64,000 nucleotides of DNA from Candidatus Woesearchaeota archaeon. GTDB taxonomy: Archaea > Nanobdellota > Nanobdellia > Woesearchaeales > DSVV01. The notes beneath the pieces were generated by a model, which ran no database searches, was not told the DNA's origin, and saw only the letters and a list, made by a program, of their open reading frames with translations. Location of the stretch: positions 5,418 through 69,417 of the forward strand of contig JACRPI010000013.1 of the NCBI GenBank assembly GCA_016214075.1. The letters are read 5' to 3'. Shown here piece by piece: positions 1-56,203 of the stretch; position 1 is the stretch's first letter, and every line of letters starts with the position of its first letter. Both the position numbers and the translations under genes were made by a program.

Positions 1-330
1 AAGTATATGCGTCGATTTGCAGAAGAATATGCAAACAAGGAAATTGTGCAAGAGGTTCTTGCACAATTGACATGGTATCACAATATTACGCTCCTTGAGA
101 AGATAAATAATTCTGTGGAACGACAATGGTATGCTCAAGAAGCAATCAAGCAGGGTTGGTCCAGAAATGTTTTGGTACATCATATTGAATCAAATTTGTA
201 TCTCAGACAAGGGAAAGTTACGCATAATTTTAGTACCCCATTACCCGCGCCACAGTCCGATTTAGCGCGGCAAACACTTAAAGATCCGTACATTTTTGAT
301 TTTCTTTCTTTGGGAGAAGAGGCTATCTAA
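1..330 (+). pseudogene. DUF1016/YhcG-family protein, N-terminal portion only. It runs off the 5' window edge and stops before the PD-(D/E)XK nuclease domain.
   Basis: Motifs LTWYHNITLLEK, QWYAQEAIKQGWSRNVLVHHIESNLYLRQG and DPYIFDFLSL are typical of the DUF1016 (YhcG) N-terminal region. The stop at 330 falls where the nuclease domain normally begins. The reading frame is open to position 1. Confidence 0.45.
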
Positions 331-333
331 AAG

Positions 334-1350
334 ATGAACAAAATGACAACAAAGACAACAGGCATCCACGAAGATGAATTGAACGCAAAGCTTGAACCAT
401 TCCACAACAAAGACAAAGTGGAGTTCAAACCAAAGTTCATCGAACATTACAGTAAACTCACTGATTTCGAAGTATTCAAAAAATATTCTCTCGCATTTCT
501 CAGAAGATCCATACGAGTCAACACGTTAAAGACAACAGTTGAAGAAATGAAAGCTGCTCTAAACAAAGACTGGCATCTCACCCCAATTCCGTGGTGCAAA
601 GAAGGATTCTGGATAGAGCATAAAGGCATTGGTGAAGAAAAAAGAAGAGACGTGGGAAACCTCATCGAACACGCGTTGGGATATATCTATGTGCAGGAAG
701 CGGCGTCGATGATCCCGCCTGTTGTCCTTAATCCACAGCCAGGAGAAATAATTCTTGATATGTGCGCGGCGCCAGGAAGCAAAACAACACAAATCGCGCA
801 ATACATGCAAAACAAAGGTCTATTAATCGCGAATGATTTCACCTATCAACGCTTGCAAGCGTTAGGATTAAATGTCCAGCGTTGTGGAATCACAAATATT
901 GTGCTAACAGAAATGCGTGGTCATACATTCAAGGATTTTCAGTTTGACAGAATTTTAATTGACGCGCCGTGTTCAGGAACAGGAACAATTAGAAAATCAC
1001 TGAAAACATTGTTGATGTGGAACATGGCGGGAATAAGACAACTCGCAGGTCAGCAACGGCAATTAATAGAAGTCGCGTTCAACAATCTCAAGCCAGAGGG
1101 AACAATGGTATACTCAACCTGTTCTAATGAGCCAGATGAAGATGAAGCAGTGGTCAGCTTCTTGCTCGAAAAATATCCAAACGCAGTCTGCGAAGAAATC
1201 AAACTCAATATCAAGCATGGTCCACCAATCATGGAGTTTGAAGGAAGAAAATACCATGAAGGCGTTAAACATACGTTACGATTATGGCCGCAGGATAATG
1301 ATACTGAAGGCTTTTTTATTGCGAAGATTCGGAAGAAAGAGTTTAAATAA
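334..1350 (+). CDS. NOL1/NOP2/Sun-family RNA (cytosine-C5)-methyltransferase
   Basis: SAM motif DMCAAPGSKT and the catalytic motifs DAPCSGTG and TCS are all present. Confidence 0.85.
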   Translation: MNKMTTKTTGIHEDELNAKLEPFHNKDKVEFKPKFIEHYSKLTDFEVFKKYSLAFLRRSIRVNTLKTTVEEMKAALNKDWHLTPIPWCKEGFWIEHKGIGEEKRRDVGNLIEHALGYIYVQEAASMIPPVVLNPQPGEIILDMCAAPGSKTTQIAQYMQNKGLLIANDFTYQRLQALGLNVQRCGITNIVLTEMRGHTFKDFQFDRILIDAPCSGTGTIRKSLKTLLMWNMAGIRQLAGQQRQLIEVAFNNLKPEGTMVYSTCSNEPDEDEAVVSFLLEKYPNAVCEEIKLNIKHGPPIMEFEGRKYHEGVKHTLRLWPQDNDTEGFFIAKIRKKEFK

Positions 1351-4535: not shown

Positions 4536-5420
4536 TTATGGGCATGCAATAATCCTCACTTTTCGTTCTATTCCCTGCACAGTATCTATCATTTTATATG
4601 AAACTCCTTGAATTTGTATAGTTTTTTCATCTTTTTGTGGTTCTGCCTGACCGTACAACGCGTCAAAGACTTCCCAGGGAAAATGTGCTTTATCAGAAAA
4701 TAATGTGTCTGTCAATCGAGAAACCAAATCCCAATCACCTGCTCGAACAGAGCGTGAAACAACGATCAACGGAGTTTCAGGATCAGATGTTACCGTTGTT
4801 TCATCACCATAATCTCCAACCATAACAGTCCGCAGTGTTTCATATCCAACTGGCGCGATCAATCTTCGCGCGAGATAAAGGTCTTTTCCATGCGACACTG
4901 GTGTTTTTGTGTGTGGATTAACGTATCGTGTAGTTTCATCAAATGGTTCTCGCGTTTGTTTATGAACGACAGAAAATAAATGAATTGTTTCTTGACGTCT
5001 TTCTTGCTGAAGGCGCTGATATTCTTCACTTTGGTCTTGACCCGTTTCAAGAAGTTCTTCTATTCTTGCGCTTCTCTCTTGGGCTCGATGTCTTCCTGTA
5101 CTAGTTTCTTCATCACTAAGAAAAGCAATTCTTGCTTGATAATCGTCATCCACCTTTCTAAATGTTCCATCTGGCAGCACATACAGTTCTCCTCTTTTTT
5201 CTCCAATGCTTTCTCTTCCAAAATATCCATCAAGGAGGGTATTAACTGAAGCAAGGCATTCTTCTCTGTGATTCAGCGCGGTTGTTGCGATGTACAGTCT
5301 TCGTCCTTTCTCTTTCTGGTTCTTTAAAAAATCTGAAACACCAGGATAGAGCCCCAACCATTCTTCTCTCCAATTTCCAAGCGTCTCGTCTTTATCCAAA
5401 AAAAGAATGTCAAGCGTCAT
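4536..5420 (-). CDS. HAD-superfamily hydrolase-like protein
   Basis: N-terminal LFLDKDETLG resembles HAD motif I (DxDxT). MVGDYGDE resembles motif IV. A long insertion sits between them. Confidence 0.4.
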   Translation of the reverse strand: MTLDILFLDKDETLGNWREEWLGLYPGVSDFLKNQKEKGRRLYIATTALNHREECLASVNTLLDGYFGRESIGEKRGELYVLPDGTFRKVDDDYQARIAFLSDEETSTGRHRAQERSARIEELLETGQDQSEEYQRLQQERRQETIHLFSVVHKQTREPFDETTRYVNPHTKTPVSHGKDLYLARRLIAPVGYETLRTVMVGDYGDETTVTSDPETPLIVVSRSVRAGDWDLVSRLTDTLFSDKAHFPWEVFDALYGQAEPQKDEKTIQIQGVSYKMIDTVQGIERKVRIIACP

Positions 5421-12906: not shown

Positions 12907-12980
12907 TGGGGCTACCCAGATTTGAACTGGGGTCTTCCGGCCCCAAACCGGAAAGGATAGCCAAACTACCCCATAGCCCC
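12907..12980 (-). tRNA. tRNA-Pro (anticodon UGG), no encoded CCA
   Basis: Manually folded. 7-bp acceptor stem GGGGCUA/UAGCCCC, T-arm CCCAG-UUCAAAU-CUGGG, anticodon arm UCCGG-UUUGGGG-CCGGA, discriminator A. Confidence 0.7.
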
Positions 12981-35786: not shown

Positions 35787-36539
35787 TCAAGCGTATTCTT
35801 CCGCTTCCATGACCAATTGCGCGAGTTTCTTGTAATCCATTGCGCCAGGAGATCGTTTTGCGTATTCGAAGATATCCTTCCCCTGACTTGGCGCTTCGCG
35901 AAGTTTGGAGTTCATTCTGATTGGATTTGCGACAAGTTCTTCATATCCGCGTTTAATCTCTTTGAGCGTTGAAACGCATGCTTTGCTTCGTCGGTCATAT
36001 AACGTTGGAATAACGAGCGTAATTTTGATGTCGTGATCAAAAAGTTCATTGATCTCAGAGACCGTTTGTGACATCTTTTTGAGCGCGTCAAGCGCAAGGA
36101 AGTCTGTGGAAACAGGAACAAACGCTTCGTTTGCGTACAGAAGCGCGTTGACGTTCAATAAACTTAACGATGGCGGACAATCAATAAGAATGTAATCATA
36201 ATTAAAAATTGGTTCCAACTTTCGCGCGAGAATTGTTTCTCTGCTTGTCTGACCACTCATAATAAGTTCCGCTTTCGCGAGCGAACTATCGCTGGTGATA
36301 ATGTCAAGACCAGGAGCAACGTTGACGATGCAATCATAAGGATCTGCGTCATTAATCATAAGATCGTAGGTTGTTTTTTCGTTTTGCACGCAAAGACTTG
36401 TTCCTACATTTCCCTGCGGATCAAGATCAATGACAAGAACTCGTTTTTCGTTTGCCGCGAGCGCGGTCGCGAGATTGATGGTTGTTGTTGTTTTCGCAAC
36501 ACCGCCTTTTTGATTAATAATACAAATTTTCCTCATCAA
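35787..36539 (-). CDS. ParA/MinD-family ATPase
   Basis: Deviant Walker A ICIINQKGGVAKTTTTINLA. Confidence 0.85.
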   Translation of the reverse strand: MMRKICIINQKGGVAKTTTTINLATALAANEKRVLVIDLDPQGNVGTSLCVQNEKTTYDLMINDADPYDCIVNVAPGLDIITSDSSLAKAELIMSGQTSRETILARKLEPIFNYDYILIDCPPSLSLLNVNALLYANEAFVPVSTDFLALDALKKMSQTVSEINELFDHDIKITLVIPTLYDRRSKACVSTLKEIKRGYEELVANPIRMNSKLREAPSQGKDIFEYAKRSPGAMDYKKLAQLVMEAEEYA

Positions 36540-36700
36540 ACATCACCCTCTTTTTGAAATGTTCTATATCCTGTATCACTGTCATCCGTATGGATGTGAG
36601 ATGTATGGAATTTGCAACACGGGCAAAGTATATAAAGTTTTTTGTTTGACGACGGGGAATTTTCTCCAAAAAATTTATATTGTTCAAGAGAATAATAAAC

Positions 36701-36813
36701 GGTGAGGCGGGGACTTGAACCCCGATACGCCCGCTAAGACGAAATGGCTCTCTGAAGCCCATCTTATCGATGGGTTTCATCAGGCCATCGCAATACCTTT
36801 ATGCGACCTCACC
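36701..36813 (-). tRNA. Intron-containing tRNA (about 113 nt), identity uncertain. A canonical bulge-helix-bulge model gives a 28-nt intron (36750-36777) at 37/38 and anticodon GAU (Ile). A long variable region, G73 and G30:C40 would instead fit a class-II (Ser-like) tRNA.
   Basis: Manually folded. Acceptor stem GGUGAGG/CCUCACC, perfect T-arm CGGGG-UUCAAGU-CCCCG, D-arm with GG. The putative BHB has central helix CUGA/UCAG flanked by 3-nt bulges UGA and AGA. 19 nt lie between the anticodon stem and T-stem. Confidence 0.6.
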
Positions 36814-36859
36814 AATATTCTTGACAATTTTTAAGACTGGACTAGTTAAATAATTCTTC

Positions 36860-36966
36860 GTCGAGTTTTCCGAAAATCTTACGGATATTCCGGAGAATTT
36901 TCGGATAAAGCGAATATGTTTCGGCATTTTATTTTTTTCTGCTATTTTTTTCGGATAATCCGAAAG
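36860..36966. promoter_or_regulatory. Cluster of TTTCGGATA / TCCGAAA motifs, including the inverted repeat TTCGGATAATCCGAA, upstream of gltX
   Basis: Motif occurrences at 36865-36876, 36881-36896, 36897-36909 and 36947-36966. Related inverted repeats ATCGGATAG...CTATCCGAT at 30641-30676 and TTTTCGGATAT at 45584-45594. Confidence 0.45.
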
Positions 36967-37037
36967 GATAATATATGATGAAATACTTTTTAAACAACCT
37001 CAATTAACAAAAATAGAGTAAACTAGGTGTAGTATCC

Positions 37038-38741
37038 ATGGAAAAAGAAGTAAAACAAATCGCGAAAAAGTACGCGTTGCAAAACGCGGTGAAATTCAAC
37101 GGCACAGCGACAATGGGCAATGTCATTGGCAAAGTGCTCGCTGAAAAGCCAGAATACAAAAAAGAAATTCAGCTCGTCCAAACGATTATCGCGGCAGTGA
37201 TCAAAGAAGTAAACGCGCTCACGCAAGATGAACAAAAAATACAATTCGCGCTCTTTGCGGAAGAACTGGAAAAACCAAAAGAAGAAAAGCACGGATTGAA
37301 AGAACTTCCAACGCATCCTTCTGGAGAAAAAGTAACATTCCGTTTTGCTCCATCCCCGTCAGGCCCACTCCATATCGGTCACGCGTATATTATCTCCTTA
37401 AATTCTCTGTACGCGAAAAAATACAAGGGAAAAATGATTCTGCGAATTGAAGACACCAATCCAGACAATATTTATCCTGACGCGTACAATCTCATTCCAG
37501 AAGACGCGAATTGGCTCACCAAAAATAATGTCGCGGAAGTGCTTGTCCAATCAGATCGAATGGAATTATATTATTCCTACGCTGTACGTTTACTAGAAGA
37601 AAACTTTGCGTATGTTTGTCTTTGTGACGCGGAAGAATTTAGAAAAATGAACCAGCAAATGCAGGCGTGCCCGTGCAGAGATAATACTGCTGAAGAAAAT
37701 CTCAAGCGCTGGAATTCTATGATCACCACATACAAGCAAGGAGAAGCGGTTGTGAGATTCAAAACAGACATCCAACATAAAAATCCAGCGATGCGCGATT
37801 TCCCTATTCTCAGAATAAATGAATCGCCGCATCCAAGACAAGGAGAAAAATACAAAATCTGGCCATTAATGAATTTCGCGGTGGCGATTGATGATATGGA
37901 CACAGGAGTCACGCACACCTTGCGAGGAAAAGATCACGCGGATAACGCGAAGCGGCAGGAATTTATTCATGCGGCGTTGAAAGTAGACACGCCTGTTTCT
38001 ATTTCTGTAGGAAGAATTAATTTTACAGGAACAGAAGTGGAAGTGTCCTGCTCTAAAACAAGAGCGATGATTGAGGGTGGTCAGTTTGAAGGATGGCAGG
38101 ATATTAGAATTCCATTTATTGGCGCGTTAAAGCGCAGAGGATATCAGCCAGAAGCGTTCCAGAAATTCGCGACAGAAATAGGGATTTCCCTCGCAGATAA
38201 AACAGTGGACATGGCAGAATTTTTCAAATCTTTGAACGCGTTCAACAAAGAAGTGATTGACGCCGCGGCAAACAGATATTTCTTTATCAAAGATCCAGTT
38301 GAAGTACAAATAAAAAATAGTCCAAAAAAACATATTGCGTTGGATTTGCATCCTGAAACAAGAAAAGGAGGCAGAACATTCGAAGCAAACGAAACCTTTT
38401 ATCTCGCGAAAGAAGACGTCGAGCAAATAGGAGAAAATGAGCTCACTCGATTAATGGATTGCGTGAATTTCACGAAAAAAGAAAAGGACTACATTTTTGT
38501 GAGTGAAGATTATGAATCCTACAAAGCGCATGGCAAGCGCATCATTCATTGGCTACCAAAGCAAGATGAGCACGTGGTGGTCGAAGTCCGCATGCCAGAC
38601 AATACGCTTGTCAAAGGTCTTGGAGAAAAAGCGATTGCGGAGTTAGAAGTTGGCGCGATTGTGCAATTTGAGCGATTTGGCTTTTGCAGAGTAGATGAAG
38701 TAGAAGGAAATACCTACAAGTTCTGGTATGGGCATAGGTAA
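37038..38741 (+). CDS. gltX: Glutamyl-tRNA synthetase, archaeal/eukaryotic type
   Basis: RFAPSPSGPLHIGHA (class I HIGH) plus an archaeal-type catalytic-core arrangement. Confidence 0.85.
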   Translation: MEKEVKQIAKKYALQNAVKFNGTATMGNVIGKVLAEKPEYKKEIQLVQTIIAAVIKEVNALTQDEQKIQFALFAEELEKPKEEKHGLKELPTHPSGEKVTFRFAPSPSGPLHIGHAYIISLNSLYAKKYKGKMILRIEDTNPDNIYPDAYNLIPEDANWLTKNNVAEVLVQSDRMELYYSYAVRLLEENFAYVCLCDAEEFRKMNQQMQACPCRDNTAEENLKRWNSMITTYKQGEAVVRFKTDIQHKNPAMRDFPILRINESPHPRQGEKYKIWPLMNFAVAIDDMDTGVTHTLRGKDHADNAKRQEFIHAALKVDTPVSISVGRINFTGTEVEVSCSKTRAMIEGGQFEGWQDIRIPFIGALKRRGYQPEAFQKFATEIGISLADKTVDMAEFFKSLNAFNKEVIDAAANRYFFIKDPVEVQIKNSPKKHIALDLHPETRKGGRTFEANETFYLAKEDVEQIGENELTRLMDCVNFTKKEKDYIFVSEDYESYKAHGKRIIHWLPKQDEHVVVEVRMPDNTLVKGLGEKAIAELEVGAIVQFERFGFCRVDEVEGNTYKFWYGHR

Positions 38742-38745
38742 GTTT

Positions 38746-39528
38746 TTACAAACATCCCCTATATTTTGCGACAGTGCGACGCGCAACAGATAGCTGGTAG
38801 AGTTCGTGAAGCGTTTCTGCGAGTTCTCTATCAGAAACAAGCCATTTTTTCCCATCAAATAAAGTGGGATCTCTTTGCAATTGTTGCAAAGCATACGTCC
38901 CTTGAAGAGCGAGAAGTTTTGCTCCAGGAATAAGCTCAGTAACAAAGCGATTTTTTTCGTATATATGGACAGTAAGAGTTCTGGTAAGACGGGATATGGC
39001 TGACTCGTCGCATCCAATGGAGTTTGCGACATCTTGCTGCGTGCGATGCTGCATGTTAAGAGGATTTTCTGTTTGAAGATATCTGTATTGAATCGGGCAG
39101 AGATATGCAATAATTTCTTTTTGTTTTTCCACAACCCAAGCTCTGTTTTTTTGAAGCGTAGTGTAAAACTCTCCATTTGCCCGCAGCGCTGCAAATCGCT
39201 CACTAAGACGTTGTTCCCAAAAGGGATTATACTCTACTTCCCATGTATATCGGCCATTCCAAGTATCAGTAAGGTGAATAGAAGCATAAAACTGCGGTAT
39301 TTCAAGAAGGTCTTGTCGTGAAATGCTCCTTGTTACTTTGTCCAGAGCTCTATTTACTGCGTAAAAAAACGTCGTCTTTGTCTCTTTTTCAGGAAGATTT
39401 TCTCTAAGAAACAGTTCTAATTCTAACGGAGAGAGTTCCATCATTACAGCTGCCAGAGGGTCGACACCAGAACGCACTTTGAATTCAAGTCTTAGATGTA
39501 AATCATCACTCATAATCATGCACTTCAT
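38746..39528 (-). CDS. Protein with a C-terminal sigma-54 (RpoN) DNA-binding-domain-like region; the N-terminal ~130 aa are unknown
   Basis: C-terminus LSVARRTVAKYRG matches the RpoN box ARRTVAKYRE. Upstream KKWLVSDRELAETLHEL resembles sigma-54 kPLSDqeIaelL. The HTH TQQDVANSIGCDESAISRLTRTL resembles the sigma-54 HTH (dvAeelg.heSTvSRa). It overlaps the upstream gene by 4 nt. Confidence 0.6.
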   Translation of the reverse strand: MKCMIMSDDLHLRLEFKVRSGVDPLAAVMMELSPLELELFLRENLPEKETKTTFFYAVNRALDKVTRSISRQDLLEIPQFYASIHLTDTWNGRYTWEVEYNPFWEQRLSERFAALRANGEFYTTLQKNRAWVVEKQKEIIAYLCPIQYRYLQTENPLNMQHRTQQDVANSIGCDESAISRLTRTLTVHIYEKNRFVTELIPGAKLLALQGTYALQQLQRDPTLFDGKKWLVSDRELAETLHELYQLSVARRTVAKYRGCL

Positions 39529-44457: not shown

Positions 44458-45453
44458 TCAAAACAACATTCTTTTTCTCGACGGCAATTGTTCTTGCGGC
44501 TGCGCTCCGCTAAATGGAGGCAATGGCGCGCCAAACTGAGGAATAGGTTGCATTTGTTCTGAAGCGCCCTGTTCGCCAGGTTGTTGTTCAGGTCCTGGAT
44601 ATTGGAATCGTCCTAAATCAGCAGGAAGTTGCGGAGCCTGTTGTATATCAGACATTTGTGGTCGAACTTGCATCGGTTGTGGTCCTTGTCGTTGCATGTA
44701 TGGATTAAAATCTTTAATCTGCGCTTTTGGGGTTTGCTGTTCTTTGACAAGATCCGCGATCGCGAGCATTCCTTCTGCGATCTTTTCGTTTTGTTCCATA
44801 ATGGAATCAAGTTTTGCGAACAATGGACCTTCTTCTTTGCTCATTTTATCGTTAAAGAGCACAAGAAGCTGTTTGACCACTGCGCTCAACTTGTTCATGG
44901 ATTCGATCATCAACTGTGTCTCTAAAGTTAACTTAGGAATGTGCGCGTAATGTGCTTTTGTTTCCAGAACCTCGTGTTTTGTCTGGCTAAGTTGTTGTTC
45001 AACATCCTGAACAGCTTGCGTATGGACACCAAGTTGTTTTTGCATTGCAGTGTGCCGCTTCATAAGCGCTTTTTCGCGTTTTCTGACATCAGAAGCAAGC
45101 GATTTGACGTGTTTCTTTAAATCCTTGACATGTTTCAGAGAACCATCTTTTAGAGCAGATTTTGCTGGTTTGACTTTCATATGTTTAATGACAGTGGTTT
45201 TTTTAACAACTGTTTTAGTTTTTCCAGTTTTTTTCTTTTTCGCAGATTTTTTCCCAGAACTTTTTTCTACAGTAATAGTTTTAACAGTAACAGAACCCTT
45301 ATTCCTGGATTTTGGTGGTTGAGCGGCCTTTTTTTTCTTTTGTTGTTTTGGCTGTATTTTTACCTGGGTAATCTCAACGTTCTGATGAGGCTGATTTTTA
45401 TTGATGATATCAAGAATATTTTTGTCTACAACAGGATTGCCCATATCTACCAT
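44458..45453 (-). CDS. Lys-rich, low-complexity coiled-coil hypothetical protein
   Basis: N-terminal KKKK-rich region, central coiled-coil, C-terminal Gln/Pro-rich region. Confidence 0.4.
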   Translation of the reverse strand: MVDMGNPVVDKNILDIINKNQPHQNVEITQVKIQPKQQKKKKAAQPPKSRNKGSVTVKTITVEKSSGKKSAKKKKTGKTKTVVKKTTVIKHMKVKPAKSALKDGSLKHVKDLKKHVKSLASDVRKREKALMKRHTAMQKQLGVHTQAVQDVEQQLSQTKHEVLETKAHYAHIPKLTLETQLMIESMNKLSAVVKQLLVLFNDKMSKEEGPLFAKLDSIMEQNEKIAEGMLAIADLVKEQQTPKAQIKDFNPYMQRQGPQPMQVRPQMSDIQQAPQLPADLGRFQYPGPEQQPGEQGASEQMQPIPQFGAPLPPFSGAQPQEQLPSRKRMLF

Positions 45454-46002
45454 ATAACACCCCTAGGCATTTTTTTAGTGACGAGGGTATAAATACTTTT
45501 CGGAAAATAGTGCATGAACAAAGTATGAATGCCATTTAGGGAAGCGTTTAATAGAAAAATGAACTATAGTAAATAACATTAATTTTCGGATATATAACTA
45601 GAGAGTGTAATGTTATTTCCTAATAAGTGAATCACTTTTTGCTAGGAACTAAGTTCCGATTATTAAAGTGATTCACTATAAAAGAGACGCTCGACAAATG
45701 CTCGCGTCTTAACGCACAAGGTCTCACAGCAACGTTCGACCTTGTGCGTTTTGTTCAGTAAGCAAAAACAACACGGCCAGACGGAGCAAAATTTGCAAGA
45801 ACCAAACCGTTTGTCAAATAGGTTTGAAGCAAATTTTGTGGAGTAGGACAAGCTTTTTGGCTTTTCTCTCTTCAAGAAGCCAAAAAGTTGACCGTCTGTG
45901 CCTGTGTTGTTGTTTTTGCCTTGGTAAGATAAAAACAGACAGAATTTAGATCATTCCCTTAAGCGTTATGTTTATATATTCCTAAAGAGAGAAAACAAGA
46001 CA

Positions 46003-47274
46003 ATGGTAGATGCACGACTATTTTCGTATGTCCAAGAGCAACTCAGAGCAGGATATGACGCGAATACAATCAGAAATTATCTCCTGCAAAATCGCTATCC
46101 GCAGAATGAAGTAGACGCGGTTTTTCAGGCAATACAGCAAGGACAAAGGCCAACGTCTCCTCAACCAATACGAGCACAGCAACAACCGCAGCAAGAAGGA
46201 CAAATAGCAACGCTCACCAATTATTTCAAGCAATATACGCGGCAAGGCTATTCCGCAGAACAGGTGCAAACATTTCTCCTTCAAAATGGCTATCCGCAAA
46301 ATGTTGTCGCGGCTGCAAAAGAAAAGGCAACAAAAAAACCATTCCAACTGCCACAAATTGCGCTTCCTTCAAAGAAAACATTCCTCATCCTTCTTCTCCT
46401 CCTCCTCATCGCAGGAGCACTCGCTGCAACAGCGTGGTTTTTTATGAACTTAGAAACAGAAGAAGAGCAAGAAATTGATTTTGACGTGAGTATCGCAGTA
46501 GACGTCGTGGCGCCAGGAGAAACATTATACATCAATAATGATTTCATCAATTTCCCTGAAAAGCGGCCATATAGCATCACCATTTATTACACAATCAATG
46601 ATAAACAAACATTAACAAGGGTTGATAGTTGGCAAATTTCAATAGACAGTACAGATTCCATTCTTGAGGCAAAAAGTGTCAAGCGCACAATTCCTCGAAC
46701 AACAGAGCCAGGAGAGTATGAGCTAAACGTCAAACTCAGTTATGGCACGACAACAAAGCAGTTGTATGAGTATTTCACCGTGAGCACAAGCGAAGAAGAG
46801 ATTGCGCAAGCAGAAGAAGTCGCTGCAGAGGAAGAAGTAAAACAAGAAGAAACAGTGATTGAAGAGAGTGAAGTTGATACAGAAGAAACAACAGGAGAAG
46901 CAATAACTGAAGAAGAACCAGAAGAAGTTGTTGAAACAGTTTCAGAAACAGGAATTCCAAGTAGTAATGATTATGTCAATCTCGCGACCGCGAAAGAAGT
47001 TGCGAAAACAGACGCGGCGGCAGCGGCTGAATATTGTGCGGCAATTAGCACATTAAGTCAGCAGGATGATTGTTATTGGAATGTCGCGAAAAATAGTGGA
47101 GATAAATCCTACTGCGAAGACGTTGTCGCGGATCACACGAGAGATGCGTGTTGGGTAGGATTTGCCTTCGACAAAGCGGATTATACTGTGTGCGATAATA
47201 TTTCTAATCCGTTCATTAAGCAAAGTTGTGAGCAGTTGGAAAAGGTAGCGGAGTTGCAGGCGATGCAGGGATAA
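46003..47274 (+). CDS. Membrane protein with two N-terminal tandem repeats of about 45 aa (...IRNYLLQNRYPQNEV / ...VQTFLLQNGYPQNVV), one TM helix, an acidic linker and a Cys-rich C-terminal domain
   Basis: Repeat pair visible in the first 100 aa. TM segment LILLLLLLIAGALAATAWFF. Confidence 0.5.
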   Translation: MVDARLFSYVQEQLRAGYDANTIRNYLLQNRYPQNEVDAVFQAIQQGQRPTSPQPIRAQQQPQQEGQIATLTNYFKQYTRQGYSAEQVQTFLLQNGYPQNVVAAAKEKATKKPFQLPQIALPSKKTFLILLLLLLIAGALAATAWFFMNLETEEEQEIDFDVSIAVDVVAPGETLYINNDFINFPEKRPYSITIYYTINDKQTLTRVDSWQISIDSTDSILEAKSVKRTIPRTTEPGEYELNVKLSYGTTTKQLYEYFTVSTSEEEIAQAEEVAAEEEVKQEETVIEESEVDTEETTGEAITEEEPEEVVETVSETGIPSSNDYVNLATAKEVAKTDAAAAAEYCAAISTLSQQDDCYWNVAKNSGDKSYCEDVVADHTRDACWVGFAFDKADYTVCDNISNPFIKQSCEQLEKVAELQAMQG

Positions 47275-50339: not shown

Positions 50340-50383
50340 AAACAGATGAATGAAAGCGCGTTTATAAAATTTTAGAGGTCAAA

Positions 50384-51295
50384 CTACTTCTTCATCTCTT
50401 TCTTCGACTTCCAGAAAAAGAATCCTACTGCCGCGAAGGTAATTGTTGGACTAGCCCACTGTGGAATGTGAAATCCAAAACTATCCAACAACATGAATGA
50501 ACCTAAAAACAAAATAGAGTACATCGCGCCATTTTTCAAGTATTTATATTTCTTGATGCGTTCAACATTGCTCACGGTGACTTGTCGTAAAACAATCGCG
50601 CCAAGACCATTCCCCAATAAAATCAGCGGAACAGAAAGCGTGAACGCGAACGCGCCTAAAACACCATCAATCGAGAATGTCGCGTCAATAACTTCAAGAT
50701 AGAATATCTTGCTGAGATCTGTTTTTTTCTTGTCCAAAAGATGTTTTTCCTGCTCAGCCGCGTTTTCCTTAAATCCATGCGTAATGAAAAAGGCGGTAGA
50801 ACCAACAACTGCGCTGAACGCCATGAATGGATTTTCCTTGAGCGCGAACCAGACAATGAGGGAAAGTAAAACAGAAACAACTGCGAAAAACCAGACTCCT
50901 TTGGATTGAATATATTCTTCACCATATAATCCATAGTGTTTTGGCTCTAAAAATATCCAGTGGAAAAAGAGGAAGATGAGGAATACGCCGCCACCAACTA
51001 ACAGAAGAGGAGCGGATGTTTCTACAGCTTCAATAACAGAAGGATCATTGCTGAATGTCGCGAACAATGCTTCAATCGGACCAAGTGTTGGGTTCACTGC
51101 CCAGACAATGCCCCAAGGCAATAATCCACGGACAACAAAGACTGCGAAAAGAATCCCCCAGAGCAAGAACCATCGCCGAGCTTTTTCTCCCATGGTGGAG
51201 AGAACTTCCGCGTTGATGATCGCGTTATCGATGCTGCTGATAGCTTCAAATAAACAAAGACCCGCAACGATGAGAATGATGCTAAATATCTCCAT
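50384..51295 (-). CDS. DUF475/TerC-like integral membrane protein
   Basis: SSIDNAIINA (the SIDNA motif) and multiple TM helices. Confidence 0.6.
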   Translation of the reverse strand: MEIFSIILIVAGLCLFEAISSIDNAIINAEVLSTMGEKARRWFLLWGILFAVFVVRGLLPWGIVWAVNPTLGPIEALFATFSNDPSVIEAVETSAPLLLVGGGVFLIFLFFHWIFLEPKHYGLYGEEYIQSKGVWFFAVVSVLLSLIVWFALKENPFMAFSAVVGSTAFFITHGFKENAAEQEKHLLDKKKTDLSKIFYLEVIDATFSIDGVLGAFAFTLSVPLILLGNGLGAIVLRQVTVSNVERIKKYKYLKNGAMYSILFLGSFMLLDSFGFHIPQWASPTITFAAVGFFFWKSKKEMKK

Positions 51296-51410
51296 ACAAA
51301 TCTCAATGTGATGATAAGTTAATAAAGATTTCTTTTCAAAAGGAGAAGGAATACTTTTTTAAAGTTGAGCTCTTTGTCCTTTTTTAAAAAGGCGGAGAAG
51401 GTGATTTCAT

Positions 51411-52646
51411 ATGAAAGAAAAAGTAGTGCTTGCGTATTCTGGTGGTTTAGACACCTCTGTTATTCTTAAATGGCTCGTCAATAAAGGGTATGATGTGGTC
51501 GCTTTTCTCGCGGATATTGGACAGGATGAAGATTTTGAGGCGGCGAAGAAAAAAGCAACCTTGCTTGGCGCTTCTGCAGTCTACATAGAAGATCTCAAAC
51601 ACGAATTTGTCGAAGAATATATTTTCGCGGCGTTAAAAGGAAACGCGGTCTATGAAGGAAGATATCTTTTAGGCACATCGATCGCGCGCCCATTAATCGC
51701 GAGAACGCAGATAGAGATTGCGCAGAGAGAACATGCGCAGTACGTTTCTCATGGCGCGACAGGAAAAGGAAACGATCAGGTGCGCTTTGAATTAACGTAT
51801 TACGCGTTAAACCCAAAAATTAAAATAATCGCGCCGTGGAAAGAAAAAGAGTTTCTCGGCCAGTTTAAAGGAAGATCAGACATGATTCAGTACGCGAGGG
51901 AAAATAATATTCCCATCACCGCGACAATAGAAAAACCGTATAGCACAGACGAGAATCTGATGCATATCAGTTATGAATCAGGAATTCTGGAAGATCCAAA
52001 GCACGCTCCTGATAAAGAAATGTTTAAAAAAACAACTTCTCCGCAGGATGCGCCAGATAAAGAAACACATCTTATGGTGGAATTTAAAGATGGCACACCG
52101 GTAAAAGTGACAAATCTTGATGATAACACCACAAAAACAGACGCGTTAGAGCTCTTCCTGTATCTGAACAAAATTGGCTCGCAAAATGGCATTGGAAGAA
52201 TAGATATTGTTGAAAACAGGTATGTAGGGATCAAAAGCAGAGGAGTGTATGAATCTCCTGCGGCGACAATTCTTTGGAAAGCGCATCAGGACATTGAAGG
52301 AATCGCGATGGACAGAGAGGTGTATCGCTTAAAAGAAATTCTTTCTCCAAGATTTGCGGAACTCATTTACAATGGGTATTGGTTTTCACCTGAAATGGAT
52401 TTTTTGATGGCGGCGTTCAACAAAAGCCAGGAACTTATTGATGGAAAAGTGTATCTCACGTTGTATAAAGGAAACGTCATGATTACAGGAAGAGAATCAC
52501 CAAGCTCTTTGTATAATAAAGATCTTTCAAGCATGGATGTCGAAGGTGGCTTTAATCAGCAAGATTCCCGTGGTTTTATCAACATCAACGCGATCCGCTT
52601 GAAGGCGCACAGCGTTATCTTAAAGAATAGGATGAAAAAAACATGA
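51411..52646 (+). CDS. argG: Argininosuccinate synthase
   Basis: N-terminal [13 protein letters not shown]-loop and the conserved ArgG core. Confidence 0.9.
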
Positions 52647-53824
52647 AGCTTTGGCAGAAAGGGCACGATCTTGACAAGGAAATTGAGCGGTTTACTGTCG
52701 GCAACGATTATCTGTTAGACAAAAAACTACTCAAGTATGACGCGCGAGCAAGTAGCGCGCATGCCGCGATGCTTCATAAGATTGGAATTCTAACAAAAGA
52801 AGAATTTGAAAAAATAAAAAAATGCTTGGAAGAGATTGAAGCCCTCGCTGCAACGGGCGCGTTTGAGATAAAACAGCAAGATGAAGATTGCCATACCGCC
52901 ATTGAGAATTATCTTGTAGAAAAACTAGGAGAAGCAGGAAAAAAAGTGCATACTGCTCGCTCTAGAAATGACCAGGTTCTTGCAGCGCTGCGCCTCTACG
53001 CACGAGAAGAAGCAGCAAAAATAAAGGAAAAAGGAAACGCAGTTATTGCAGCACTTTGTCTGTGCAAAGCAAAATACGGCGCAGTAAAAATCCCAGGCTA
53101 TACGCACATGCAGCGCGCGATGCCTGCAACATGTGGATTATGGATTGGCGCGTTTGAAGAAGCGCTTCAGGATGATCTGCTTGTGCTTGAGCATGCAGTA
53201 AAGATCATGAATCAATCTCCTTTGGGCGCGGCTGCTGGCTATGGCGTTCCTGGATTAGCGATTGATAGGGTCTTTGTCGCGGAAACACTTGGATTTGAAA
53301 AAGTGCAGAATAATACACTTTATGTGCAGAATAGTAGGGGGAAGTTTGACCTGCTTCTATTGCAGGCGTTGCAGCAAGTCATGCTCACATTAAACAAGCT
53401 CGCTACAGACGTTATGCTTTTCACAACAGCAGAGTACAATTTTCTCAAGTTGCCTGTAGAATTTTGCACAGGAAGCAGTATTATGCCTCAGAAAAAAAAT
53501 CCGGATGTCATAGAATTACTTCGCGCGAAAACAGCGATGTTTTGTAGTTATCCGCAACAAATAACCGCAATCATAACAAATCTTCCTTCAGGATATAACA
53601 GAGATTTTCAATTAACCAAACAACCCTTTATGGAAGCGATTGAGTTGACAAAAAATTGTTTGCAAATAAGTGCGCATGTTCTTAGTATGTTGGAAGTAAA
53701 TAAAGAGAGCTGCGAAGCTGCTGCAAGCAGTAAAGAATTGTATGCGACAGAAGAAGCGTATAAGCTCGTCAAAAAAGGAATGTCATTTAGGGAAGCGTAT
53801 AAAGAAGTAGGAAAGAAATTCTAA
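52643..53824 (+). CDS. argH: Argininosuccinate lyase (short form, 393 aa)
   Basis: [12 protein letters not shown] lyase signature. Overlaps argG by 4 nt. About 60 aa shorter at the C-terminus than typical ArgH. Confidence 0.8.
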
Positions 53825-53849
53825 TCAAAATTGCCCTATTTTAAAAAAT

Positions 53850-55190
53850 TTAATACAAATATCCCCACGTATGCAATCTATCTGAATCATTGACCCATTT
53901 CGCGCCAATATCCACGCGATAAAACATGTTCTGCAGCATAATATTTTTCACGCGGTTATACGCCTGTTTTCTCGCGTCGTCAACAGTAGTTCCTGAGCCA
54001 GTAATGACAAGCGCGTAGCCCGATTCTCCCGCAAGTCGAAGATCGTCTTCCACCATCTTAACATCGCCAAGGTGAACTCCTTCCCAACTCGGTTTCCTAA
54101 AGAGAACTGAAGAATCTTTGTAGACAGCGAATGTTTTCGCGTCATCAAACGGAAACGGAGGAACAGCGACAACAACGCCTACTTGGAATCCTTTTTTTGT
54201 CTTAAGATCAAATTGCTCTCCTTTCGCGAGCTGATACATCAAATCTCCCCACGGATTCAAAATTCCTTCCATTTGAATGCTGATAGTAGGATACCCAAAG
54301 CGACAAGTAAATTCAAGAGGATGAATGCCATACCGATCTGCGATGCAATTAATATCAACGTAACCAACATAATTGGATTCCTCAAGAAGGGGCTGCATTT
54401 TCTCCAATGTTTGTTTGTAAATCTCACAACTTGGCGCGAAAAACATAAGCGTCCCCATTTCACCAGTAAACGGCCCAATATCCCCCGGAAACATTCTTTT
54501 GTGTTCAAAATTCACACAAACAGGAGTGATGAAATCCTTGCCATTGAAAAAAGCGCCAATAGCGACTTCAACGCCCGTAACATATTTTTGGAGCTGAAAG
54601 TGTTTTGCTTTTTTGCTCCACGCTTTTCTGTTGTGCATCATGACTTCAAGAAGATCTTTACCATCTTCTTCTTCTGCGATAAACAAAAGTGCTTTTTGAT
54701 CAGATCCAATAAATCCGCTCGGTTTAAGCACATATCGTCCAGGATTTTTCTGTAAAAAGTCAATTGCCTCATCCATATTTGTAAAATTCCAGCGAGGAAG
54801 AACGTTGACGCCGACGCGTTTGAGTTCTGACTGGCCAAATTCTCTGTCTTCTTCAAGGCGGTCACTGTATGCTGTTCCACCGACAACTAATTTCCCTTCT
54901 TTGCGAAGTTTGTCTGCGATTTCTCCGAACCCTGTATCGTCGAAAACAATAACATCTGCCCATTCGACTTCTTCACGCCAGTTGGAAACTTTTTCAAGAA
55001 TACCGTCGTAAACATCTTGATCAGTGCCGCTTTTGATATAACAACGAACTTTGTGTCCTTCTTTCTGAATTTGCCAAGCAAGATCGCCGCTGAGGCTTTC
55101 GTTGGAAACAAAGAGAAATTTTTTATGCCCGTTTTTGTGTTCTGGCTTTACTTCAGTTTTCGTCTCAGATTTTATTTCTTTTCCATCCAT
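53850..55190 (-). CDS. purD: ATP-grasp enzyme, PurD-like (phosphoribosylamine-glycine ligase). Assignment within the ATP-grasp superfamily is uncertain.
   Basis: KFLFVSNESLSGDLAWQI N-terminal, FPGDIGPFTGEMG (cf. PurD DhGPNTGGMG), FGYPTISIQ (cf. FGDPETQ). Confidence 0.5.
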   Translation of the reverse strand: MDGKEIKSETKTEVKPEHKNGHKKFLFVSNESLSGDLAWQIQKEGHKVRCYIKSGTDQDVYDGILEKVSNWREEVEWADVIVFDDTGFGEIADKLRKEGKLVVGGTAYSDRLEEDREFGQSELKRVGVNVLPRWNFTNMDEAIDFLQKNPGRYVLKPSGFIGSDQKALLFIAEEEDGKDLLEVMMHNRKAWSKKAKHFQLQKYVTGVEVAIGAFFNGKDFITPVCVNFEHKRMFPGDIGPFTGEMGTLMFFAPSCEIYKQTLEKMQPLLEESNYVGYVDINCIADRYGIHPLEFTCRFGYPTISIQMEGILNPWGDLMYQLAKGEQFDLKTKKGFQVGVVVAVPPFPFDDAKTFAVYKDSSVLFRKPSWEGVHLGDVKMVEDDLRLAGESGYALVITGSGTTVDDARKQAYNRVKNIMLQNMFYRVDIGAKWVNDSDRLHTWGYLY

Positions 55191-55238
55191 ACCTTTTTTC
55201 TGATAAAAGTGGTATTTATAATTTTGTATTTTGAAAAA

Positions 55239-56042
55239 TCACAACAACAAAATAAAAACAACAATCGCAAGAATAATTCTATAATATCCAAACAATTTGA
55301 AATCATGGTTGGAAATATATCTCATGAGCCACGCAATCGCGAGCCAGGCAGTGATAAAAGAAACAACAAATCCAAGTGCAAGAGTAGAAAGCTGAAGAGA
55401 AGTAATATTATTCCCCTCTGTAAAATACACAAAAAGCGAATATCCTGACGCAGCAAGCAGCGTAGGAATTGCAAGAAAAAAAGAATATTCTGTGGCGGTT
55501 TTTCTGTTCAAGCCAAGGAGCATTGCGCCAATAATAGTTGCGGCTGCTCGAGAAATACCAGGAATCAACGCAAAACATTGAATCAAGCCAATAAAGAAAG
55601 CAGTCGCGTATCCAACTTGCACAATATCTGCCATCTTCTGTTTTTTTTCTGTAAACTGCTCTATGAAGAGAAGAAATAGCCCGCCAACAAGCAATGCAAT
55701 CGCAACAACCAACGGAGTAAAGAGTGTTTTCTGGATCCATGTACCAAATAAACCTCCGAGAAGGAGTGCAGGAAGAACACTAAGCAGTATTCTCTTCCAA
55801 ATTTCAAGAGTGTTTTGTCGTTCTTGAGTATTTTTTTGCACAGGAATAATTTTCTTTCGAAAATAAAGAAGCACAGCAAGAATTGCGCCAGATTGGATCA
55901 CGATATCAAAGAGTGTTGGAAACGCACCTGTAAATGAAATAATGTTGTTCACAAGAATCAAGTGTCCTGTGGAGGAGATGGGCAAAAATTCAGTAATGCC
56001 TTCAACAATACCAAGGAGCAGTGCGATAATGAGGTCGTTCAT
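55239..56042 (-). CDS. uppP: Undecaprenyl/dolichyl-diphosphatase UppP (BacA)
   Basis: GIVEGITEFLPISSTGHLIL signature. Start trimmed to MNDLII. Confidence 0.8.
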   Translation of the reverse strand: MNDLIIALLLGIVEGITEFLPISSTGHLILVNNIISFTGAFPTLFDIVIQSGAILAVLLYFRKKIIPVQKNTQERQNTLEIWKRILLSVLPALLLGGLFGTWIQKTLFTPLVVAIALLVGGLFLLFIEQFTEKKQKMADIVQVGYATAFFIGLIQCFALIPGISRAAATIIGAMLLGLNRKTATEYSFFLAIPTLLAASGYSLFVYFTEGNNITSLQLSTLALGFVVSFITAWLAIAWLMRYISNHDFKLFGYYRIILAIVVFILLL

Positions 56043-56152
56043 TCTCTGGAATAATGCGTTTTGGTATAAATTGCTTGTTGTTTTTTTTGACATACATAAG
56101 ATTTCAGCGTATAAAACGCATGCTAACAAAATTATAAACGCATAGCAACCTA

Positions 56153-56203
56153 AAACACGCACCAGCAAAACCAAATACACAATTCATCCTTTTATTATTC
56201 ATT
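56153..56203 (+). promoter_or_regulatory. Conserved promoter-like element (copy C)
   Basis: AAACACGCACCAGCAAAACCAAATACACAATTCATCCTTTTATTATTCATT, upstream of the YbjQ-family gene at 56257. Confidence 0.55.

Follow-up and report, generated by a model that had tools for sequence, protein, structure and literature searches.

Within a 64,000-nt stretch of a Candidatus Woesearchaeota archaeon genome (contig JACRPI010000013.1; hereafter the window, whose numbering we use throughout, with gene letters read on the minus strand), an intron-containing tRNA gene at 36700–36813 joins a class II body resembling that of tRNA-Ser to GAU, an isoleucine anticodon. The gene belongs to a family that we conclude, with high confidence, to be functional and structurally constrained. 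Its members probably descend from tRNA-Ser and retain the serine identity set, as judged from the features compared below. More tentatively, and with slightly less than even confidence, we propose that they are accessory, serylated class II tRNAs that read AUY codons under dedicated control. An earlier note on this DNA, drawn from its letters alone, had recognized the mixture of serine and isoleucine signals and had suggested two ways out of it: a second, non-canonical intron in the variable region or a wrong anticodon assignment. Because both proposed resolutions fail across homologues, the conflict is real and conserved and not an annotation problem.

An intron-containing class II tRNA

Searched alone, the region scores 44.7 bits with the Rfam tRNA model RF00005 (gathering score 29, E = 2e-8, model positions 1–71 covered); relative to the model, 31 nt are inserted in the anticodon loop, and the variable region holds a long insertion. 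ARAGORN with introns allowed (ARAGORN -i), one of the comparisons that the earlier note had called for, returns tRNA-Ile(gat) with a 28-nt intron at 37/38. The predicted pre-tRNA fold is strongly stable (−51.9 kcal/mol, z = −5.3), with none of 200 shuffles folding as well. Together these results bear out an intron-containing tRNA gene on the minus strand. Its parts are as follows.

36700–36813, minus strand: complete tRNA gene, a 114-nt pre-tRNA from G1 to discriminator G73 with no encoded CCA (RF00005, ARAGORN -i, fold)
36778–36813, minus strand: 5′ exon, tRNA positions 1–37 (segmentation; ARAGORN intron position 37/38), with the acceptor 5′ strand, U8 C9, the D arm GCAU/UUGC with a 7-nt loop, G26, AUGGC and C32 U33 G34 A35 U36 G37
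36779–36781, minus strand: anticodon GAU, which reads AUC/AUU (ARAGORN and segmentation), followed by G37 and not the A37 usual for tRNAs reading ANN
36744–36788, minus strand: bulge-helix-bulge (BHB) motif, with outer helix AUGGC/GCCAU, central helix CUGA/UCAG, 3-nt bulges UGA and AGA, and an inner helix
36750–36777, minus strand: intron of 28 nt at the canonical 37/38 position, with inner hairpin CCCAUC-GAUAA-GAUGGG (ARAGORN and BHB scan)
36725–36743, minus strand: long variable arm of 19 nt, UU, stem CGUCU/GGGCG with loop UAGC, then UAU
36700–36749, minus strand: 3′ exon, with A38, the anticodon-stem 3′ strand, the variable arm, the T arm CGGGG-UUCAAGU-CCCCG, the acceptor 3′ strand and G73 (at 36700)

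Written by segment, the 5′ part of the pre-tRNA reads GGUGAGG UC GCAU AAAGGUA UUGC G AUGGC CUGA UGA A ACCCAUC GAUAA GAUGGG CU and the 3′ part reads UCAG AGA GCCAU UU-CGUCU-UAGC-GGGCG-UAU CGGGG UUCAAGU CCCCG CCUCACC G. The acceptor stem (GGUGAGG/CCUCACC), D arm (GCAU-AAAGGUA-UUGC) and T arm that had been described as clean are all present, as is the anticodon stem AUGGC/GCCAU. Of the span first given, 36701–36813, the end stands, whereas the start misses the discriminator G by one base.

Only the local Rfam search and ARAGORN -i detected the gene; it was missed by the default tRNA tool and by the whole-window Rfam run at the gathering threshold. That run gave zero matches, despite this gene and a canonical tRNA-Pro(UGG) at 12907–12980 found by the default tRNA tool; the blank is a sensitivity limit of the filtered run. 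An 88-aa open reading frame (ORF) in the mechanical ORF list (36514–36780, minus strand) overlaps the 3′ exon and intron on the same strand and is almost certainly spurious.

A structurally constrained family

Further copies were recovered by a gapped pattern scan of metagenomes and by look-ups anchored on neighbouring proteins. The pattern scan gave 5 matches, 4 of which were chance matches inside coding DNA, leaving only that in contig L013 as real; scans of viral contigs with three family patterns were empty for two and yielded, for the third, four chance matches in a single phage gene. All family comparisons rest on six distinct intact sequences, namely the window gene and the first five copies below.

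L002: identical to the window gene except for G1 to A
L013 c1: anticodon GAU
L013 c2 (L013 7334–7453, plus strand): same body, loop CUCAAAA, anticodon CAA (Leu UUG), A37
L015, the same as L016: anticodon GAU
L018: anticodon GAU
L019 copy (about 30–152, plus strand): CAA-type, loop CUCAAAA; 5′-defective, with no recognizable 5′ acceptor strand in the 60 nt before the contig start

L002 (CAYLMH010000004.1) belongs to a metagenome-assembled genome titled ‘uncultured Methanosarcinales archaeon’, and its glutamyl-tRNA synthetase (GluRS) is 96% identical to that of the window. The closest named relatives of the window GluRS are all Candidatus Woesearchaeota or Nanoarchaeota, and the Methanosarcinales label is probably wrong.

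The homologues score 38.5–43.8 bits with RF00005 and differ widely in their stems. Between the window gene and L018, for example, the acceptor stem changes from GGUGAGG/CCUCACC to GCCCGGA/UCCGGGC, the anticodon stem from AUGGC/GCCAU to GAGGA/UCCUC and the T stem from CGGGG/CCCCG to GUGGG/CCCAC. In the spliced alignment, 99.3% of stem cells are nevertheless paired and 11 of 25 pairs are changed on both sides, a result that 0 of 500 shuffles reach; sliding the 3′ partner by 1–3 columns, as a control, leaves only 42–51% pairing. Both the 7-bp acceptor stem and the 5-bp T stem covary, and the D stem has 3–4 bp. G73, G29-C41, G30-C40, C32, U33, A38, U8 and G26 are invariant in all members, and the bases of the tertiary interactions (U8, A14, G18 G19, A21, R26, U54 U55 C56 and A58) are present in every one.

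A decaying, functionless duplicate of tRNA-Ser could account for the fast divergence of the copies, for the A1 opposite C72 in L002 and for the 5′-defective copy in L019. It would not be expected to keep its stems paired through 11 compensatory changes or to conserve tertiary bases, BHB motif, anticodon loop and upstream array across copies, and we consider it very improbable. Two other folds were considered and rejected. An 8-bp acceptor stem would need an extra U.G pair that is drawn by ARAGORN and is not kept in L002, and tRNA-Sec would have a 9/4 fold, a long D stem and the anticodon UCA, whereas the gene has a 7/5 fold, a D stem of 3–4 bp and GAU.

Probable descent from tRNA-Ser

Two relatives, L022 and L029, carry a canonical intron-less tRNA-Ser(UGA); in a relative whose GluRS is 81% identical to that of the window, it has the 5′ part GCCAGCG UG GCAC AAUCUGGUA CUGC G CCAGC CUUGAGA GCUGG and the 3′ part UU-CCC-GAAA-GGG-UAU CUCGG UUCAAAU CCGGG CGCUGGC G. 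This tRNA and the family share a class II shape, a near-identical D arm (GCAC-AAUCUGGUA-CUGC with G26 in tRNA-Ser; GCAU/GUAU-AAUCUGGU(U)A-UUGC with G26 in L013 and L018), C32-U33, G37-A38, the UU...UAU flanks of the variable arm, the T loop (UUCAAAU in tRNA-Ser, UUCAAGU in the window), G30:C40 and G73. The D loop of L018 is identical to that of tRNA-Ser(UGA); those of the window, L002 and L015 are shorter (AAAGGUA, AAUGGUA). Because of these shared features, we take the family members to be tRNA-Ser paralogues, and the odd G37 beside U36 is best read as a legacy of tRNA-Ser.

The same features bear on charging. In archaea, the serine determinants are G73, G30:C40 and the long arm, and the anticodon plays no part in serine identity; G73 also blocks the Haloferax (H. 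volcanii) LeuRS. The strong determinants of tRNA-Ile are the discriminator and the anticodon, with a contribution of t6A37 in some systems, and A73 is a discriminator that Val identity has in common with Ile and Met (PMC9976931). The discriminator G and G30:C40, which had been pointed out as tRNA-Ser signals in the window gene, are there and are invariant across the family; a serine anticodon is missing. Of the tRNA-Ile features, GAU is present and A73 and A37 (the t6A site) are not, with G73 and G37 in all GAU members instead, and in place of the 4–5-nt variable loop of a class I body stands a 19-nt structured arm with no removable intron. Serine charging would be the most likely outcome because G73, the long arm with the same flanks, G30:C40 and the D arm are kept and the A73 and A37 of tRNA-Ile are absent. 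The CAA subfamily (L013 c2 and L019), built on the same body, fits a synthetase that is blind to the anticodon.

The family also departs from the local tRNA-Ser in several respects: its anticodon is GAU or CAA and not a serine anticodon (NGA or GCU), it has a BHB intron where tRNA-Ser has none, it has C9 in place of G9 and a longer variable stem, and it combines an upstream TCCGAAA/TTTCGGA array with fast evolution and a variable locus.

Beside the tRNA-Ser(UGA) gene itself, its last 16 nt (AATCCGGGCGCTGGCG) are repeated about 95–130 nt downstream, with one mismatch in L029 (L022 about 4700–4800, minus strand; L029 about 410–556, minus strand), and a reverse-complement T-arm fragment lies between gene and repeat. 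The repeat has the look of an att site left behind by an integrated element, or of a broken copy of the tRNA.

Splice site and anticodon

Several observations support GAU as the anticodon of the spliced tRNA. First, all the BHB elements that had been listed for the window gene are present (central helix CUGA/UCAG, bulges UGA and AGA, hairpin CCCAUC-GAUAA-GAUGGG), and the motif has the strict hBHBh′ form, with two 3-nt bulges on opposite strands, a 4-bp helix between them and flanking helices. The BHB scan finds 4/4 central pairs, an outer helix counted as 6 and an intron length of 28, so that the intron at 36750–36777, the anticodon GAU and G37 that had been predicted all stand (ARAGORN; BHB scan). 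Second, strict hBHBh′ motifs occur at 37/38 in all GAU members, in the same register in L013 c1, L015 and L018, with a kept central helix and intron hairpins of differing sequence; family introns are 25–32 nt long. Third, the spliced loop CUGAUGA is identical in the window, L002, L013 c1, L015/L016 and L018. Because homologues keep both the BHB register and the CUGAUGA loop, we regard GAU as the real anticodon. The spliced alignment also shows both GAU and the long arm to be under selection.

The CAA copies, L013 c2 and L019, have relaxed BHB motifs with 3/4 central pairs, and the splice site of L013 c2 is ambiguous: ARAGORN places the intron at 34/35 and calls tRNA-Thr(cgt), anticodon CGU. 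From a well-formed 3′ bulge UAA beside the anticodon stem and from canonical spacing, we read its loop as CUCAAAA and its anticodon as CAA.

If splicing occurred elsewhere and gave a serine or leucine anticodon, the isoleucine call would be an artefact. Such a product would suit the Ser-like body, UGA and UCA triplets do lie near the loop, and the choice between cgt and CAA in L013 c2 shows that a site can be disputed where the motif is relaxed. In the GAU members, by contrast, the strict motif leaves no ambiguity (4/4 central pairs, 3-nt bulges, 5-bp outer helix) and its register is conserved, other registers read from the sequence lack U33 or a 7-nt loop, and ARAGORN and Rfam agree on the exon boundaries. 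With four GAU homologues keeping register and loop on different stems and intron hairpins, a wrong anticodon assignment is extremely improbable.

We also considered an intron-encoded C/D-box guide RNA and rejected it. The letters of the C-box-like UGAUGA that had been placed inside the intron are present, but they comprise U33–G37 and the first intron base, thus straddling the exon–intron boundary. The 28-nt intron holds no 3′ CUGA (D box) partner, and the local Rfam search gave no significant C/D-box match, the only hit being snoMBII-202 upstream of the tRNA (E = 0.12, 19.9 bits against a gathering score of 40). Introns of 25–32 nt appear too short for a C/D-box guide RNA by minimum-size estimate.

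The variable arm

The 19 nt between anticodon stem and T stem can fold as CGUCU-UAGC-GGGCG, as had been noticed, and the same holds in the family at large: all members have a variable arm of 17–24 nt that forms a helix, which is 100% paired in the six distinct members with compensatory changes at 2/5 pairs. The arm is structural because five further homologues keep this helix by compensatory changes and share no splice motif there.

Short non-canonical introns have been reported in some archaea, and if the 19 nt held a second one, the mature molecule would be an ordinary class I tRNA-Ile. L015 does contain an isolated candidate with 4/4 central pairs whose removal would leave 5 nt. However, no BHB candidate in the variable region is common in register to the members, and in the window no candidate with 4/4 central pairs would leave 4–5 nt; the region is a plain hairpin whose helix covaries, the local intron-less tRNA-Ser carries the same arm between the same UU...UAU flanks, and G73 and G37 would remain unlike tRNA-Ile even after such an excision. 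The second intron that had been offered as one way out is thus hardly credible.

A conserved upstream module

About 150 nt of upstream DNA and about 30 nt of trailer are conserved with each copy that has upstream sequence. In the window, the flanking elements are as follows.

36814–36990, minus strand: whole upstream module, containing 5 of the window’s 18 CCGAAA/TTTCGG hexamers; conserved between copies at three genomic sites
36842–36853, minus strand: A+T-rich box TTATTTAACTAG, about 29–40 nt upstream of G1; aligns with TTAATAAG of other copies
36862–36876, minus strand: 15-mer TTTTCGGAAAACTCG with an 11-bp palindrome, TTTTC-G-GAAAA; exact only here in the window
36869–36905, no strand assigned: inverted repeat TCCGAAAA-N21-TTTTCGGA; sole match in the window, conserved between copies in alignments
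36945–36962, no strand assigned: distal palindrome TTTCGGA-TTA-TCCGAAA; same dyad upstream of the copies in L001, L002, L013 (both) and L018
36665–36699, minus strand: T-rich trailer TTTATTATTCTCTTGAACAATATAAAT..., conserved across copies in the alignment

The hexamers are strongly clustered, with 5 found against 0.05 expected in 177 nt (Poisson P about 2e-9). The 15-mer occurs once upstream of every family copy having upstream sequence and nowhere else among the fetched loci, the dyad TTTCGGA-N3-TCCGAAA is found in most copies, and 0 of 100 shuffles yield an inverted repeat of the form TCCGAAAA-N21-TTTTCGGA. The TCCGAAA/TTTCGGA array is absent upstream of the canonical tRNA-Ser. The TTATTTAACTAG box is likely to be an archaeal TATA element and the TTTATTATTCTCTTGAACAATATAAAT trailer a likely transcription stop, and the array is probably a candidate operator that would bind a DNA-binding regulator. 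For the inverted repeat, an RNA hairpin was rejected and a DNA-binding site is preferred because one change in L015 breaks a pair without compensation.

Rapid change and variable location

The window gene lies between genes for a ParA/MinD-like ATPase (35787–36539, minus strand) and GluRS (37038–38741, plus strand), in a chromosomal region that also encodes FtsZ, RsmB, ArgG/ArgH, PurD and topoisomerase I. Copies of the family occupy three sites, each of which is empty in other genomes.

ParA/GluRS spacer: copy in the window and L002; empty in L003 and L015
Upstream of BacA: copy in L013 c2, L015 and L018; empty in the window and L017
Next to a 182-aa gene and a radical-SAM gene: copy in L013 c1; empty in L015 and L019–L021

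Between two genomes with 94% identical GluRS, tRNA-Ser(UGA) is identical at 84/84 positions, whereas family members are only 59–81% identical between genomes whose ArgG, GluRS or BacA are 83–94% identical. A functional link to the adjacent GluRS was rejected: relatives with 80% and 91% identical GluRS keep the same spacer without the tRNA, and the adjacency is incidental. Transposon-like insertion was likewise rejected, as filled and empty sites differ by replacement of spacer DNA, with no target duplications or terminal repeats; in the window, the 3′ end of the tRNA is not repeated in att-like fashion. Immediately downstream of three copies comes BacA, the undecaprenyl-diphosphatase gene, and genes for Bro-N proteins lie close to the L013 and L018 copies.

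The window at 50381–56072 and 60782–63997 matches L013 1733–13167 with 82–86% nucleotide identity and a kept gene order (ArgG-ArgH-PurD-BacA ... topoisomerase I-radical SAM). By this synteny, the site of the L013 GAU copy falls just past the 3′ end of the window, so the window genome may carry a second copy there. An exact look-up of the window topoisomerase, aimed at the sequence past this end, found no record of it.

The BacA ORF of the window (55239–56180, minus strand) is called about 46 codons too long, with the true start near 56042. Among its best 120 matches are six close relatives (73–91% identity), after which identity drops to about 51–58%; where the source is named, these lower matches are mostly bacterial, with one labelled Woesearchaeota (P0097, 55%). 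Because matches beyond the six close relatives are mostly bacterial, the comparison suggests that the BacA of this archaeal clade was acquired from bacteria.

The genetic code and possible roles

Reassignment of AUY or UUG to serine was rejected. AUU/AUC codons of the window GluRS align with I/V/L in Aenigmarchaeota homologues, and the Ile of its HIGH signature is encoded by ATC; in BacA, compared with 114 bacterial homologues, AUU/AUC align with Ile in 57–60% of residues, UUG falls on Leu and there is next to no Ser. If the tRNA inserts serine, it would therefore do so as mistranslation, since AUY is not reassigned.

For an accessory tRNA of the kind proposed above, expression would start from the A+T-rich box under control of the TCCGAAA/TTTCGGA array, and the transcript may be made only under particular conditions. 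The splicing endonuclease would cut the BHB motif, and ligation would give an 86-nt tRNA with the loop CUGAUGA, predicted to be an L-shaped class II tRNA with its tertiary bases intact. SerRS would charge it whatever the anticodon, to judge from the identity set and the kinship with the local tRNA-Ser, and the charged tRNA would pair with AUC/AUU codons, the gene being accessory and not a housekeeping isoleucine decoder. The strictest version, actual insertion of serine at isoleucine codons by the ribosome, is a possibility to which we give less credence than to the proposal as a whole. It is on balance unlikely, although worth stating, that a Woesearchaeota-like lineage keeps conditionally expressed Ser-accepting tRNAs, reading AUY and in a sister branch UUG, each copy behind its own operator array, as a deliberate, switchable mistranslation device or a toxic-tRNA device for defence or stress.

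Several points weigh against the serine proposal. GAU is kept in 5 of the 6 distinct intact members, and an anticodon-blind function does not obviously require it; its near-fixation could reflect recognition by IleRS and is the main observation that a serine model leaves unexplained. An Ile-to-Ser substitution is harsh, so that a ribosomal role would need tight control, itself a supposition. The variable stem is longer and the D loop shorter than in the local tRNA-Ser, making acceptance by the local SerRS uncertain; three unpaired bases lie 3′ of the family variable stem, although the local tRNA-Ser has the same (UAU); and A1 opposite C72 weakens the first pair of L002. Finally, coexistence with a canonical tRNA-Ile(GAU) is a supposition: about 400 kb of related contigs yielded no canonical tRNA-Ile.

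This last observation also favours a genuine tRNA-Ile of class II shape, charged by IleRS through GAU, protected from SerRS by some unrecognized feature and serving as the sole or an extra AUY decoder of reduced genomes. AUU/AUC codons are abundant and mean Ile, GAU and the loop CUGAUGA are conserved in five distinct members while the stems change, no contig examined has more than one GAU copy, and IleRS relies strongly on the anticodon (PMC9976931). Yet every member has G73 where A73 is expected, and G37 replaces A37 (PMC9976931). The gene has the body of the local tRNA-Ser, diverges far more rapidly than a housekeeping tRNA from the same clade, changes its locus between close relatives and carries a special repeat array, while IleRS could not explain the CAA sister copy on the same body. 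We judge this alternative to be clearly unlikely.

Unlikely too, but to be taken seriously, is a serylated or merely folded tRNA that is not used for bulk translation, whether it supplies seryl groups to a tRNA-dependent transferase, serves as a decoy or backup when nucleases attack tRNAs, or acts as a conditional toxic tRNA in a defence or addiction module. Presence and absence at three loci and fast divergence amount to accessory behaviour, the dense operator-like array suggests tight control, and the recurrent position before BacA and the nearby Bro-N proteins could fit such a role. On the other side, no transferase, nuclease or toxin partner is consistently linked, with neighbours differing at each site; the intact anticodon arm, U33 and tertiary bases point to ribosome competence; and no copy was found on viral contigs. 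An initiator-like tRNA, for which AUY and UUG as alternative starts and the conserved G29-C41 and G30-C40 might speak, was rejected because the 31:39 pair is variable and other marks of an initiator are lacking.

Relation to known systems

It is rare in nature for the charging identity of a tRNA to contradict its anticodon; the known cases come from bacterial allo-tRNAs, nematode nev-tRNAs and yeast, with the Pro/Ala-type tRNAs of Streptomyces as another bacterial case. Bacterial allo-tRNAs combine serine identity elements with non-serine anticodons, including those of Ile and Leu, have a patchy, accessory distribution and in some cases insert serine at Leu codons when expressed in E. coli (Mukai et al. 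2017, PMC5389517; reviewed in PMC7609411). The present family shares their pairing of serine identity elements with a non-serine anticodon; however, allo-tRNAs are defined by a 12-bp acceptor branch with 8/4 or 9/3 acceptor/T-stem partition, whereas the family has the canonical 7/5, and they are bacterial, whereas the family is archaeal, contains a BHB intron and has almost settled on a single anticodon. Nematode nev-tRNAs are eukaryotic, clade-conserved class II tRNAs with anticodons of class I amino acids (Ile, Gly; UAU or CCC) that are charged with leucine in vitro (PMC3333845, PMC4300185). They resemble the family in having a class II body with a class I anticodon, including that of Ile, conserved in one clade, and differ from it in that the family has the serine-type discriminator G73 and the anticodon GAU.

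The tRNA-Ser(CAG) of the Candida CUG clade is likewise a tRNA-Ser derivative that reads the codon of a hydrophobic residue and has G37; there the codon is truly reassigned, whereas in the genomes carrying the family AUY and UUG keep their standard meaning. Compared with ordinary archaeal tRNAs with BHB introns at 37/38, position, motif geometry and intron size are the same, so that the oddity is the tRNA carrying the intron and not the intron. Searches of a paper library found no archaeal precedent, nor any natural tRNA in which a BHB intron interrupts a canonical 7/5 class II body.

Such tRNAs bear on genetic-code change and on purposeful mistranslation by cells. An archaeal family with a clear tRNA-Ser origin, a nearly fixed isoleucine anticodon and a dedicated control region would offer a tractable test system for regulated mistranslation in a third domain. 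There is also a consequence for annotation: the gene escapes default finders, and those that allow introns call it simply ‘tRNA-Ile’, a label that would hide a possibly missing true isoleucine decoder and mis-state the tRNA complement of DPANN genomes.

Other features of the window

Next to GluRS, a gene at 38746–39528 (minus strand) encodes a 260-aa protein that matches the sigma-54 DNA-binding domain PF04552 (E = 5e-9), which is unexpected for archaea; the gene is also conserved beside GluRS in the Logan contig L001. Elsewhere, a 550-nt gene-free stretch at 45450–46003, without a match in a local Rfam search (E<=0.1), contains several long inverted repeats, among them AAGTGAATCACTTT...AAAGTGATTCACT, GCGCACAAGGTC...GACCTTGTGCG and, near 45880, an imperfect hairpin of roughly 30 bp. 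It also has two TTTTCGGA-like sites and may be an undescribed structured RNA or regulatory region.

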